Shown here: one piece after another, positions 21,929-35,014 of the stretch | How the letters are laid out: each line of letters opens with the position of its first letter | Position numbering within the stretch: position 1 is the first letter of the stretch | From: a virus | Taxonomy: Duplodnaviria > Heunggongvirae > Uroviricota > Caudoviricetes | Direction: 5' to 3' (one strand) | DNA: 41,779 nucleotides | Virus record (IMG/VR): IMGVR_UViG_2721755647_000004 | Translations under genes and position numbers: made by a program | Notes under the pieces: generated by a model | The model's database searches: none | Told to the model about the DNA's origin: nothing | Seen by the model: only the letters and a program-made list of their open reading frames with translations

Positions 21929-22180
21929 ATGAAAATCAGAAATATTCTCGCTATCTCCCTTGCGACATCATCCTTCAGTTGCCTGGCATTTAAATCCTCG
22001 CCCAATGTGCTACCAGGACCAACGAATCAACTAACTGCGGTAGAAAGTAAAATTATCGGACATTTTTATGCCCCACACAGTACATTACCCGGAACAACCA
22101 TCACAGGGACATGTGACGCCTCCCCCGTCCCGGGATGCACCTGCCCGTTTTGTACTATGCTGCGTAGCCAAAACCGATAA
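21929..22180 (+). CDS. hypothetical small secreted protein (signal-peptide-like N-terminus)
   Basis: ATG at 21929 gives MKIRNILAISLATSSFSCLAFKSS...; no homology recognised; just beyond cos. Confidence 0.3.
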   Translation: MKIRNILAISLATSSFSCLAFKSSPNVLPGPTNQLTAVESKIIGHFYAPHSTLPGTTITGTCDASPVPGCTCPFCTMLRSQNR

Positions 22181-22543
22181 CATCCGCATTTACCTGGTAT
22201 TCCATGATGAGTTCACGCAGCGACTGATAGAGGAAGGAAAGATGGTTAGTAAAAGCAAGGCACATTGCCGCCGCATGCTGCAGGCATTGCAACAGACGAG
22301 AGCAGGTATTTTTGACCAGTTGGAAAACTGCCAGCATACTTTGCCCGAGTATATCGCCATCTCATCGGAAACCAGTGCAACTCTTATTCATCGGGTTCCA
22401 CCAGAGAAAAAGAAGAAATGAACAGTGAGGCGTTGTGTGGCATACAACGCCTTCTTCCATCATTCCTCGTCAGCCATGACAAAAATATAACCGCTGGCTC
22501 TTTCATTTTTCTCCTGCTTCCAGCCCCTCTCTATCTGGAAGCA

Positions 22544-22870
22544 TCAAGGACGTGACGGCGTAAAGATAAATTGTCTCTTCACTCCCTGACAGGGGCGATT
22601 CTTTTCAAATCGCCATTTCGCCATGGCCTTCACCACTTCATCACGAAACAAATTATGAGGCTCTGAGCGGAGAAAAACGATCCGTGTCACAGTCCCATCA
22701 GCACCAATATCGAACTTAACCTCAACCAGCCCCTTGATATAATTTGCTGCAGCATATTCCGGATATCGTGGATACACCGTCACTAATTGCCGGGGCTCAT
22801 CAGCTTTTTGCTGCGAGCATCCCACTGCCAGGACAGATAACAGAAAAAGTAGTAAAAGGCGTCTTTTCAT
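22544..22870 (-). CDS. lipoprotein with TonB C-terminal-like domain
   Basis: Start at MKRRLLLLFLLSVLAVGCSQQ (lipobox LAVGC). The body YPRYPEYAAANYIKGLVEVKFDIGADGTVTRIVFLRSEPHNLFRDEVVKAMAKWRFE fits the TonB_C pattern (YP..A...G.V.V.F.I..DG.V......F...A..A...WRF). Confidence 0.6.
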   Translation of the reverse strand: MKRRLLLLFLLSVLAVGCSQQKADEPRQLVTVYPRYPEYAAANYIKGLVEVKFDIGADGTVTRIVFLRSEPHNLFRDEVVKAMAKWRFEKNRPCQGVKRQFIFTPSRP

Positions 22871-23350
22871 TTTTATTCCTACGGGTCTTATTCTGACAAT
22901 ATATCCTGTGTTCCAGACTGCCACATCACCACATCCTGTGCCATTATCTGACTCACATTACATACATCGCATCGGGATACAGTAGTAGCACTTTCTGTAA
23001 TACAGCTTCCTGTTTCTTCCACCATCGCACCGGGATAAACCCGCGAATCATTAACGCGGTAAAAACCCGGTGTGCATCGTTTTTAATTATTCCCGCACAC
23101 TCACGCAGAAGGAATTCCCCGTCGGGCTACGGTCATGGTTAATGCGGGAATACGGCGACGATACAGCGCAGCTAAAAGGGTAATGGACGGATAGACCGGT
23201 TTATTTCATTCCACAGGATTCTGAGTGTCCCCAACTTCCTCCAATAGTCTGAGCCCACCTGTGTAGTTTTAATTTTCATCAATCCATTTAACTATCGTTT
23301 AATTGTTGTCACATAGGATTCTGCCGTTTTTAACAATGCAGGATAATAAG

Positions 23351-23644
23351 ATGAAAAAAATGTTGTTTTCTGCCGCTCTGGCAATGCTTATTACAGGATG
23401 TGCTCAACAGACGTTTACTGTTGGAAACAAACCTACAGCAGTAACACCAAAGGAAACCATCACCCATCATTTCTTCGTTTCGGGAATTGGGCAGAAGAAA
23501 ACTGTCGATGCAGCAAAAATTTGTGGTGGTGCAGAAAATGTTGTTAAAACAGAAACCCAGCAAACATTCGTAAATGGATTGCTCGGTTTTATTACTTTAG
23601 GCATTTATACTCCGCTGGAAGCGCGTGTGTATTGCTCACAATAA
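23351..23644 (+). CDS. bor: Bor outer-membrane lipoprotein (serum resistance)
   Basis: MKKMLFSAALAMLITGCAQQTFTVGNKPTAVTPKETITHHFFVSGIGQKKTVDAAKICGG... is near-identical to lambda Bor (97 aa); opposite strand to the late genes, as in lambda. Confidence 0.95.
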   Translation: MKKMLFSAALAMLITGCAQQTFTVGNKPTAVTPKETITHHFFVSGIGQKKTVDAAKICGGAENVVKTETQQTFVNGLLGFITLGIYTPLEARVYCSQ

Positions 23645-23675: not shown

Positions 23676-24137
23676 CTATCTGCACTGCTCATTAATATAC
23701 TTCTGGGTTCCTTCCAGTTGTTTTTGCATAGTGATCAGCCTCTCTCTGAGGGTGAAATAATCCCGTTCAGCGGTGTCTGCCAGTCGGGGGGAGGCTGCAT
23801 TATCCACGCCGGAGGCGGTGGTGGCTTCACGCACTGACTGACAGACTGCTTTGATGTGCAACCGACGACGACCAGCGGCAACATCATCACGCAGAGCATC
23901 ATTTTCAGCTTTCGCATCAGCTAACTCCTTCGTGTATTTTGCATCGAGCGCAGCAACATCACGCTGACGCATCTGCATGTCAGTAATTGCCGCGTTCGCC
24001 AGCTTCAGTTCTCTGGCATTTTTGTCGCGCTGGGCTTTGTAGGTAATGGCGTTATTACGGTAATGATTAACAGCCCATGACAGGCAGACGATGATGCAGA
24101 TAACCAGAGCGGAGATAATCGCGGTTACTCTGTTCAT
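23676..24137 (-). CDS. Rz: spanin inner-membrane subunit Rz
   Basis: Start at [45 protein letters not shown]; 153 aa, lambda Rz-like. Confidence 0.9.
23735..23917 (-). CDS. Rz1: spanin outer-membrane lipoprotein Rz1 (embedded in Rz, +1 frame)
   Basis: 60 aa: [60 protein letters not shown], matching lambda Rz1. Confidence 0.9.
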
Positions 24138-24248
24138 TGCTGACCCCACAAACAGATTTCACGCTCAATCTCACGACGAGTCATGAGACCTTTCCATTGC
24201 TTACCGCCAGCATATGTCCAGCGACGTAGCTGATCACATGAGCCTTTG
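24134..24248 (-). pseudogene. R: C-terminal fragment of SAR endolysin R (phage 21 type), separated from its 5' part by the IS insertion
   Basis: Minus-strand translation reads [37 protein letters not shown] stop. The stop overlaps the Rz ATG. Confidence 0.85.
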
Positions 24249-26202
<1,954 letters not shown>

Positions 26203-27394: not shown

Positions 27395-28477
27395 ATGAAA
27401 AAATTAACAGTGGCAATTTCTGCTGTAGCTGCATCAGTACTGATGGCGATGTCTGCTCAGGCAGCTGAAATTTATAATAAAGACAGTAACAAGCTGGATC
27501 TATACGGGAAAGTTAATGCCAAGCACTACTTCTCCTCTAATGATGCAGATGATGGTGATACTACTTATGCCCGTCTTGGCTTCAAAGGTGAAACCCAAAT
27601 CAACGATCAACTGACTGGTTTCGGTCAGTGGGAATATGAATTCAAAGGCAACCGTGCTGAATCTCAAGGTTCTTCCAAAGACAAAACCCGTCTTGCATTT
27701 GCAGGCCTGAAATTTGGTGATTACGGCTCAATCGATTACGGCCGTAACTACGGTGTAGCATACGACATCGGTGCGTGGACTGACGTTCTGCCAGAATTCG
27801 GTGGTGATACCTGGACCCAAACAGATGTGTTCATGACTGGTCGCACTACTGGTGTTGCAACTTATCGTAACAACGACTTCTTTGGTCTGGTCGATGGCCT
27901 GAACTTTGCTGCTCAGTATCAGGGTAAAAATGACCGCACTGACGTAACTGAAGCCAATGGTGATGGTTTCGGTTTCTCCACTACTTATGAGTATGAAGGA
28001 TTCGGCGTGGGTGCAACCTATGCTAAATCAGATCGCACTGACGGTCAGGTCGCCTATGGTAAGAGCAAATTCAATGCCTCCGGCAAAAATGCGGAAGTAT
28101 GGGCTGCAGGCCTGAAATATGATGCGAACAATATCTATCTGGCTACCACATATTCTGAAACTCAGAATATGACCGTTTTTGGTAATAACCATATTGCAAA
28201 CAAAGCACAAAACTTTGAAGCAGTAGCACAATATCAGTTTGACTTCGGTCTGCGTCCATCTGTTGCTTACCTTCAGTCAAAAGGTAAAGACCTTGGTGTT
28301 CATGGTGACCGAGACTTAGTCAAGTATGTCGATGTCGGTGCTACTTACTACTTTAATAAAAACATGTCCACTTTTGTTGATTACAAAATCAACTTAATTG
28401 ACGATAGTAAGTTTACCAAAACAGCTGGTATTGATACCGACGACATCGTCGCTGTAGGTCTGGTTTATCAGTTCTAA
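27395..28477 (+). CDS. nmpC: outer-membrane general porin, phage-borne NmpC/Lc (OmpC/OmpF family)
   Basis: [23 protein letters not shown] signal peptide, [24 protein letters not shown] and C-terminal ...VAVGLVYQF porin signatures; AAAGGG Shine-Dalgarno upstream; between Q and S as in DLP12 and PA-2. Confidence 0.9.
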
Positions 28478-34321: not shown

Positions 34322-35014
34322 ATGAAAAAAGAAACTCTTGCTGATCGCTTAAACCTAGCGATGGAACAATCTGGAATGTCTCAAGGCGCTCTTGCAAAGG
34401 CGTCTGGCGTAGCTCAACCCACAATCTGGAGACTGACAAGCGGCAACGCGCGCGGCTCAACAAAAATTGTTGAAATAGCTAATGCATTGGGTGTTCGAAC
34501 AGAATGGCTCTCATCAGGCATAGGCCCGATGAGAAATGACGGTCAACAATCAGGGAAGCCTGCTGTCAGCTATTCCAAATACTTTAAAATTGACGTTCTT
34601 GATATAGAAGTGAGTGCCGGGCCGGGAGTCATCAACCGTGAGTTTGTAGAAGTTCTACGCTCGGTTGAGTACTCGTTTGACGATGCTCGTCACATGTTCG
34701 ATGGTAGGAAGGCAGAAAATATCCGCATCATTAACGTACGCGGTGACAGCATGTCAGGAACGATTGAACCTGGTGATCTTCTATTCGTTGATATCACGGT
34801 TAAATCTTTCGACGGTGATGGTATCTATGCGTTTCTGTACGACGACACAGCCCATGTAAAGCGCCTGCAAATGATGAAGGATAAGCTGCTGGTTATCTCT
34901 GATAACAAAAGCTACTCACCGTGGGACCCGATCGAGAAAGATGAGATGAACCGGGTATTTATCTTCGGGAAAGTTATTGGGAGCATGCCGCAGACGTATA
35001 GGAAGCATGGATAG
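34322..35014 (+). CDS. cI: CI-like prophage repressor (HTH_XRE plus S24 LexA-like peptidase domain)
   Basis: MKKETLADRLNLAMEQSGMSQGALAKASGVAQPTIWRL HTH; C-terminal RGDSMSGTIEPGDLLFVD ... KRL catalytic Ser/Lys motifs. An alternative TTG start lies at 34286. Confidence 0.9.
   Translation: MKKETLADRLNLAMEQSGMSQGALAKASGVAQPTIWRLTSGNARGSTKIVEIANALGVRTEWLSSGIGPMRNDGQQSGKPAVSYSKYFKIDVLDIEVSAGPGVINREFVEVLRSVEYSFDDARHMFDGRKAENIRIINVRGDSMSGTIEPGDLLFVDITVKSFDGDGIYAFLYDDTAHVKRLQMMKDKLLVISDNKSYSPWDPIEKDEMNRVFIFGKVIGSMPQTYRKHG

Follow-up and report, generated by a model that had tools for sequence, protein, structure and literature searches.

A TonB C-terminal-domain lipoprotein gene of phage-21-type Escherichia coli prophages is expressed in the lysogen and encodes a possible competitor for TonB docking

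The stretch of viral DNA analysed here, 41,779 nucleotides (nt) from the IMG/VR record IMGVR_UViG_2721755647_000004 (Caudoviricetes), is referred to below as the window. On its minus strand, at 22544–22870, it carries a gene for a lipoprotein of 108 amino acids (aa) with a single TonB C-terminal (TonB_C) domain. Phage-21-type and related enterobacterial prophages carry this gene as a moron (a lysogenic-conversion gene), and its transcription from the repressed prophage does not depend on that of the late genes next to it. Its product could be a partial or selective competitor of TonB, or a trap for invaders bearing a TonB box; this function is put forward tentatively, as a good possibility that still falls short of being probable. 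The localisation, the binding partner and the phenotype given below are predictions.

Gene and Annotation Status

The program-made list of open reading frames (ORFs) contains a minus-strand ORF at 22544–22924, which is 126 aa long when read from a GTG codon. The protein had been assigned to this interval in an earlier reading of the same DNA (the original prediction). The ORF itself is real, but its strand is minus and its start has to be moved inwards: the true start of the gene is the ATG at 22870, not the GTG at 22924. A Shine–Dalgarno motif AGGA (22877–22880, minus strand) stands 6 nt 5′ of this ATG, as seen in the sequence and in the phage 21 annotation. Both phage 21 and RefSeq annotate only the inner 327 nt as coding (22544–22870, stop codon counted in), and the first 18 codons of the longer interval (22871–22924) are probably left untranslated.

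The protein is identical to CPT_21_73 of phage 21 (UMO75484.1, annotated as "TonB C-terminal domain protein") and to WP_000830178.1 of RefSeq ("TonB family protein"). Older labels include 'partial tonB-like membrane protein' and 'TonB fragment' (phage ev017, phage Perceval, CP-933N). The gene and its domain have already been annotated, and so they are known as an annotated object. In the light of the literature consulted, four points appear to be new: the lipid-anchored single-domain TonB_C proteins form a clade of their own, the gene regularly stands at the tail of the lysis cassette in prophages, there is evidence that it is under purifying selection, and expression data show it to be a highly expressed conversion gene.

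Lipoprotein Signal and Predicted Location

Residues 1–18, MKRRLLLLFLLSVLAVGC (22817–22870, minus strand), form a signal peptide with a lipobox. In a pattern test this N-terminus satisfies the PROSITE-type lipoprotein rule: K/R is found within the first seven residues (at 2–4), followed by LFLLSVLAVGC, which ends in Cys18, the predicted lipidated residue. A lipobox is present in every phage variant despite the divergence of the signal peptides, and its cysteine is invariant across the family. The lipobox signal peptide (LAVGC) claimed in the original prediction is therefore upheld. The +2 residue is Ser19; relatives have Ser, Thr, Ala or Val at this position, and Asp is never found there.

According to the Lol sorting rule, lipoproteins with a +2 residue other than Asp are directed to the outer membrane. 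Lipidation at Cys18 would be expected from established rules, and outer-membrane sorting is predicted by the Lol rule because the +2 residue is not Asp. A short tether, residues 19–25 (SQQKADE; 22796–22816, minus strand), lies between the lipid anchor and the TonB_C domain, and its length is 6–8 residues in all lineages examined. With Ser+2 and a tether of 7 residues, the domain would be kept on the periplasmic side of the outer membrane, no more than a few nanometres from the inner leaflet. It is here that TonB itself, through its C-terminal domain, contacts the TonB boxes of its transporters.

TonB C-Terminal Domain

The TonB_C domain comprises residues 26–104 (22559–22795, minus strand), equivalent to residues 153–231 of E. 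coli TonB. The original prediction had claimed such a domain and had proposed a profile search and a structure prediction as checks; both agree with the claim. The Pfam profile PF03544 is matched with 49.2 bits (gathering threshold 24.6, E = 7.3e-13) and TIGR01352 with 47.4 bits (cut-off 27.1). Residues 24–103 align ungapped over 80 residues to residues 151–230 of E. coli TonB in solved structures (E = 1.4e-14), and 32 of 78 residues (41%) are identical to TonB 153–230, again with no gaps.

The AlphaFold2 model, built from 53 sequences, has a predicted local distance difference test score (pLDDT) of 89.3 overall and 97–98 over the domain. It superposes on receptor-bound TonB with a root-mean-square deviation (rmsd) of 1.0 Å for 2GSK_B (BtuB complex) and 0.8 Å for 2GRX_C (FhuA complex), the target-normalised TM-scores being 0.91–0.92. 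Foldseek also matches the model to 1U07_A (E = 4.6e-8). The model and the Foldseek matches display the three-stranded sheet packed on two helices that is seen in solved TonB C-terminal domains. Over the four E. coli TonB structures 2GSK, 2GRX, 1U07 and 1XX3 the fold is the same, with an rmsd of 0.8–1.5 Å and a target-normalised TM-score of about 0.9.

Scanning mutagenesis has identified seven functionally important residues in the TonB C-terminus, and all seven are retained: Y163, F180, G186, F202, W213 and F230 are unchanged, and Y215 is replaced by F. The YP motif, the beta-3 strand (residues 94–103) and a similar positive charge are kept from TonB as well (14 K/R and 8 D/E in the phage protein versus 14 and 7 in the TonB domain). 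The mature domain has a single Cys, residue 94 (RPCQG; 22589–22591), which the phage 21 type shares with the JLK-2012 copy. It is not conserved: other variants have Arg, Tyr, Ser or Thr at this position. Where the Cys occurs, it might permit disulfide-linked dimers in the periplasm.

Identity with the TonB energy transducer itself is rejected. The protein scores 45–69 bits with the five TonB equivalogs of NCBIfam (NF008080–NF008084), whose cut-offs are 265–448 bits. It is also 108 aa long instead of about 240 and has a cleavable lipoprotein signal, no inner-membrane anchor and no proline-rich spacer. Unlike E. coli TonB, which is anchored at its N-terminus and linked to ExbB/ExbD, the phage protein is predicted to be lipid-anchored at the outer membrane; it also lacks the last four residues of TonB.

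Expression in the Lysogen

Transcription of the gene can be followed in a published RNA-seq comparison between E. coli NC101 and a derivative that lacks NC-SV, the prophage inserted at icd (PMC12803456). The samples were mid-log LB cultures taken 10 minutes after infection by an unrelated lytic phage, and the table gives fold changes, not counts. The cos-to-iss region of NC101 is 99.9% identical to the window, and GQ584_RS06965 ("TonB family protein") encodes the identical protein, WP_000830178.1. Between the lysogen and the prophage deletion this gene has a log fold change (logFC) of −9.91 (P = 1.6e-11), the fifth most extreme among the prophage genes listed; the cI-type regulator has −9.76 and iss −6.15.

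The holin, lysozyme and both terminase genes (RS06935, RS06950, RS06975 and RS06980) are absent among the genes listed in the same table. Since transcripts of the TonB_C gene reach a level like that of the repressor, and those of the flanking lysis and terminase genes are undetected, the gene is a genuine moron, and the moron status given to it in the original prediction stands. Its presence in some and absence from other related phages, together with an atypical G+C content (46.8% versus 50.9% for the window), is also what is expected of a moron.

The promoter active in the lysogen must be located in the 480 base pairs (bp) at 22871–23350, which lie upstream of both the TonB_C gene and the divergent iss. 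A minus-strand scan upstream of the gene for sigma-70 promoters gave nothing with at least 9 of 12 matches and a 16–18 nt spacer. A Fur box scan over 22400–23400 gave nothing at 12 of 19 matches.

Family, Selection and Distribution

Among 1.8 billion representative proteins searched, the closest relatives from outside E. coli were small proteins of 107–133 aa, 35–46% identical to the query. They share one plan: a signal peptide, usually with a lipobox, a tether of 6–8 residues and one TonB_C domain. In a neighbour-joining tree, which is rough and carries no support values, the small lipoproteins group with the phage proteins in one clade, placed beside the gammaproteobacterial TonB domains as their sister and not nested in them; recent capture from E. 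coli tonB is rejected on this ground. In IMG/VR, 218 contigs encode a relative found with the query alignment, and two diverged subtypes add 15 and 24 loci. Most of the family members that could be placed lie in prophages.

The phage 21 type and the 72%-identical type of Stx phages and JLK-2012 differ with a ratio of nonsynonymous to synonymous substitution rates (dN/dS) of 0.12 at a dS of 1.5. The gene is under purifying selection. Its DNA occurs in 1224 of 5426 complete E. coli genomes, including strains 536 and NC101, and in only 15 of 50,697 phage records.

Exchange between phage and chromosome can also be observed in this family. The copy of Klebsiella phage ST13-OXA48phi12.4 (locus L004, 4923–5291) and a chromosomal copy of Raoultella planticola (locus L007, 6770–7105), which has no phage genes nearby, differ by a dS of only 0.24 (dN/dS 0.29), and the exchange is therefore recent.

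A Possible Unenergised Competitor for TonB Docking

In the proposed mechanism a TonB C-terminal domain that stands alone would be held by the tether on the inner side of the outer membrane. Having no inner-membrane anchor, proline-rich spacer or ExbB/ExbD link, this domain would not transduce energy. Because the features of TonB are kept while the protein cannot be energised, competition for docking or trapping of TonB boxes would be its simplest activity. The solved complexes show the TonB box as a strand paired to beta-3 of TonB. The phage domain could dock by beta-strand augmentation on the TonB-box segments of TonB-dependent transporters and/or on invaders bearing a TonB box, such as group B colicins. 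Foreign phages of the T1/phi80 type, colicins and microcins that depend on TonB would then enter the lysogen less readily, probably through a partial or selective effect and not through a global TonB shutdown.

Two experimental precedents cited in PMC9841981 are relevant here. An overproduced periplasmic TonB domain inhibits transporter-mediated iron import (Howard 2001), and in the presence of a TonB-box peptide colicin killing and infection by phi80 are reduced (Tuckman 1992). As far as the fragments of Howard et al. 2001 are described there, they are dominant-negative laboratory constructs that compete with native TonB and inhibit transporter function, and the phage protein would resemble them in being an unenergised TonB C-terminal domain in the periplasm. 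Those fragments were soluble, artificial and of native TonB sequence, whereas the phage protein is natural, diverged and, as predicted, lipid-tethered.

Llp of T5 and Cor of phi80, N15 and HK022 are lipoproteins of the outer-membrane inner leaflet that act on the periplasmic face of FhuA, on a surface that overlaps the TonB docking site. The TonB_C protein is likewise a small phage-encoded lipoprotein predicted to reside in the inner leaflet of the outer membrane. It differs from Llp and Cor in sequence and fold, which are unrelated, and in genome place, being encoded after the lysis genes, whereas llp and cor stand among pre-early or tail genes. It is not a relative of these proteins: no Cor or Llp family occurs among its PHROG hits, and it has no significant match in the viral structure library, in which the Llp fold is said to have many matches. 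With Bor/Iss and other lambdoid morons the likeness concerns the type of gene: it codes for a small lipoprotein of the outer membrane, lies between the lysis genes and cos, is active in the repressed prophage, has a G+C content below that of the surroundings and is dispensable for phage growth. Bor belongs to an unrelated protein family, and bor lies on the strand opposite to the late strand that carries the TonB_C gene.

Several observations weigh against the competitor function. The reported contact residues for the TonB box and the barrel are replaced (R158T, Q160Y, R166Y, R204D, N208K, V225K and V226R), the last two being exposed residues of beta-3. At every contact position compared (all but K231) a substitution is found; the main residues now present are Y33, Y39, D77, K98, R99 and I102, and both N208 and R212 have become Lys. 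R204, N208 and R212 of TonB have been implicated in plug or barrel contacts. In the FhuA–TonB structure R166 is likewise implicated in such contacts.

Physiology is a further consideration. Uropathogenic strains depend on TonB during infection, and because carriers such as strain 536 are of this type, a strong TonB block would be costly to them. No significant difference was seen for any Fur-regulated gene found in the NC101 table, which argues against a strong global TonB block. The values are −0.75 for fiu, −0.62 for fhuF, −0.54 for fyuA, −0.44 for exbB, −0.31 for fhuE and −0.23 for fhuA. All six lean to higher expression in the lysogen, by 0.2–0.75 log2 units, in a comparison that is weak because LB medium was used and sitABCD was co-deleted with the prophage.

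The remaining points concern exclusion as such. The original prediction had drawn an analogy to exclusion of the Cor type. As self-exclusion this analogy fails: the tail-tip protein of the window is 99.4% identical to J of phage 21, whose native receptor is LamB, so exclusion would act on other phages and not on phage 21's own kind. No family of the PADLOC defence models was matched. The NC101 prophage NC-SV has been reported to encode a small RNA (sRNA), svsR, at the 3′ end of cI, which lowers LamB and phage adsorption; the protection given by this prophage was ascribed to this LamB-directed sRNA and not to the TonB_C gene. A cI-like gene, the counterpart of NC-SV cI, is present in the window at 34322–35014 (plus strand). 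In Raoultella and Erwinia a few relatives of the TonB_C gene lie in chromosomal surroundings free of phage genes, and given these copies a cell-envelope role unrelated to defence is possible. A literature search on the function of the gene found no paper, and the genome announcement of phage 21 does not discuss it.

A more far-reaching form of the competitor function can be formulated, although it is doubtful. The lipid-tethered copy of the host TonB docking domain would serve as a decoy in a new, fold-independent type of receptor-level exclusion. About a fifth of E. coli strains would thereby be protected against TonB-dependent phages, colicins, microcins and siderophore–antibiotic conjugates, while iron uptake would be spared through the altered contacts or a limited copy number.

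Alternative Functions

The protein could instead serve the host as a conversion factor that tunes or stabilises one envelope partner (a transporter, a signalling transporter or another beta-strand ligand) and contributes to fitness or virulence together with Iss/Bor and the prophage porin. This role is considered unlikely, although a number of observations fit it. Expression in the lysogen is high and divergent from iss, and the prophage has other envelope morons, namely iss and an OmpC-like porin gene. The Raoultella and Erwinia homologues stand at non-prophage sites. The conserved core combined with altered TonB contact residues would be expected for a new partner. Specialised TonB_C domains are able to bind other ligands, e.g., FusB with ferredoxin (PDB 9HI3, among the structure matches). 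However, there is no candidate partner, the great majority of copies in E. coli and Klebsiella are carried by phages, and nothing ties the gene to serum resistance or virulence.

The position of the gene suggests another function, that of a late lysis-associated accessory made with holin, endolysin and spanin and helping or timing the disruption of the outer membrane. In phage 21, JLK-2012 and Klebsiella phage ST13-OXA48phi12.4 the gene follows the holin, endolysin and spanin genes and precedes the small terminase subunit gene on the late strand. An endolysin homologue is encoded upstream on the same strand in 89 of the 108 viral loci with enough upstream sequence; hand-checking of two apparent exceptions revealed a lambda-type endolysin with Rz/Rz1. 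This synteny holds across several unrelated endolysin types and across lineages that are only about 40% identical. In eight loci (L090 and L098–L104) no more than about 130 nt separate the spanin stop codon from the start of the gene. In L101, the one locus of these scanned over this gap, a strong canonical terminator is located directly 3′ of the gene, with none between the spanin gene and it.

The best PHROG match, phrog_1267 (E = 5e-43), is labelled 'Rz-like spanin', and the outer-membrane lipoprotein Rz1, an o-spanin, is likewise encoded at the end of the lysis cassette. The spanin identity is nevertheless rejected, and the label is most likely an annotation artefact. A separate Rz/Rz1 or i-/o-spanin pair is present in every phage examined, the window included, and the folded TonB_C domain is unlike the short, proline-rich o-spanins.

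For the broader lysis-accessory function the choice is between a role in lysis and a favoured slot for moron insertion. The region between the lysis genes and the terminase genes is a known hot spot of morons. In phage 21 the oppositely oriented bor separates the TonB_C gene from Rz. The NC101 lysogen expresses the gene strongly while holin, lysozyme and terminase genes remain undetected, so that it is not simply part of the late transcript; these data decide for the insertion slot, and an accessory role in lysis is improbable.

A prophage with a lambda-type endolysin and Rz/Rz1 of its own (locus L111, 4328–4639) has the 3′ remnant of a different, L098-type o-spanin gene just upstream of its TonB_C gene; the TonB_C gene seems to travel with the tail end of a lysis cassette.

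TonB itself might be the target of a trap, in which the phage domain pairs with the C-terminal domain of host TonB as it reaches the outer membrane. F202, W213, Y215 (here F) and F230, all conserved in the phage protein, are reported sites of disulfide-linked TonB homodimers in vivo, and TonB C-terminal fragments crystallise as dimers (1U07 and 1IHR, among the structure matches). The phage domain corresponds to the longer TonB constructs, though, and its model best fits the monomeric receptor-bound form. The global TonB defect expected from such a trap shows no significant sign in the NC101 RNA-seq. Pairing with TonB therefore has little probability.

Survival of a dead tonB fragment picked up by a phage, as suggested by the older labels and by the coverage of only the last third of TonB, is effectively refuted by the selection and expression data, and the dedicated and conserved signal peptide with its lipobox, the intact ribosome-binding site and the separate clade of single-domain lipoproteins speak against it as well.

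The preferred function thus remains that of a partial or selective competitor for TonB docking, with the tentative standing given above.

Prophage and Neighbouring Features

The window represents a phage-21-like lambdoid prophage that has integrated beside icd. Over 24 kb it matches several E. coli chromosomes with 100% identity, as it does strain 536 apart from an insertion; between the end of the lysozyme gene and cos, its identity to phage 21 is 99.7%. The original prediction had placed the TonB_C gene next to bor and cos, and this neighbourhood is confirmed. The serum-resistance lipoprotein gene iss/bor (23351–23644, plus strand) is its divergent neighbour at 480 bp, and the position matching the right end (cos cut) of phage 21 is 21781, 763 bp downstream of the gene.

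Two stable hairpins (about 22515–22543 and 22428–22452; together 22428–22543, minus strand, z = −2.97) follow the stop codon, the second being succeeded by a U-rich stretch. They were not scored as terminators in a consensus scan; it is possible that this pair marks the end of the moron transcript. Between the gene and cos an annotated ORF of 60 aa (22155–22337, minus strand) is overlapped by an ORF of 117 aa (22068–22421, plus strand), and neither matches Pfam. The NC101 counterpart of the 60-aa ORF has a logFC of −7.48, and its signal is possibly the 3′ part of the TonB_C transcript.

Beyond iss/bor the phage's own spanin pair forms the end of the lysis cassette: the i-spanin gene Rz (23676–24149, minus strand) with the embedded o-spanin gene Rz1 (23735–23917). 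The phage-21-type endolysin gene is interrupted by IS100 of the IS21 family (24249–26202; istA 24335–25357, istB 25354–26136), which is flanked by a 6-bp duplication, CCTTTG; strain 536 has no such insertion. The prophage copy with the split endolysin gene should be unable to lyse its host.

The OmpC-like porin gene (about 27395–28477, plus strand) is a moron between the Q antiterminator gene (quuD) and the holin gene, and its NC101 counterpart has a logFC of −7.18 in the lysogen comparison. Pfam searches with the small flanking ORFs and two ORFs at the left end of the window gave no match and no cor gene. Rfam gave no hits over the whole window, and a tRNA scan gave no genes.

Biological Significance

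Interference with TonB docking, if it occurs, would make the protein the first TonB mimic known from nature and would add a mechanism to prophage-mediated exclusion. If it acts as a decoy, a new variant of receptor-level exclusion built on a host-derived fold would be at hand. Given the number of carriers among the complete E. coli genomes, such an activity could influence the choice of phages for therapy and the ecology of colicins and microcins in the gut. It could also affect the susceptibility to siderophore-conjugated (Trojan-horse) antibiotics, which enter via TonB-dependent transporters. Should the protein have another role, it would still be a highly expressed, conserved prophage envelope protein encoded beside the virulence gene iss.

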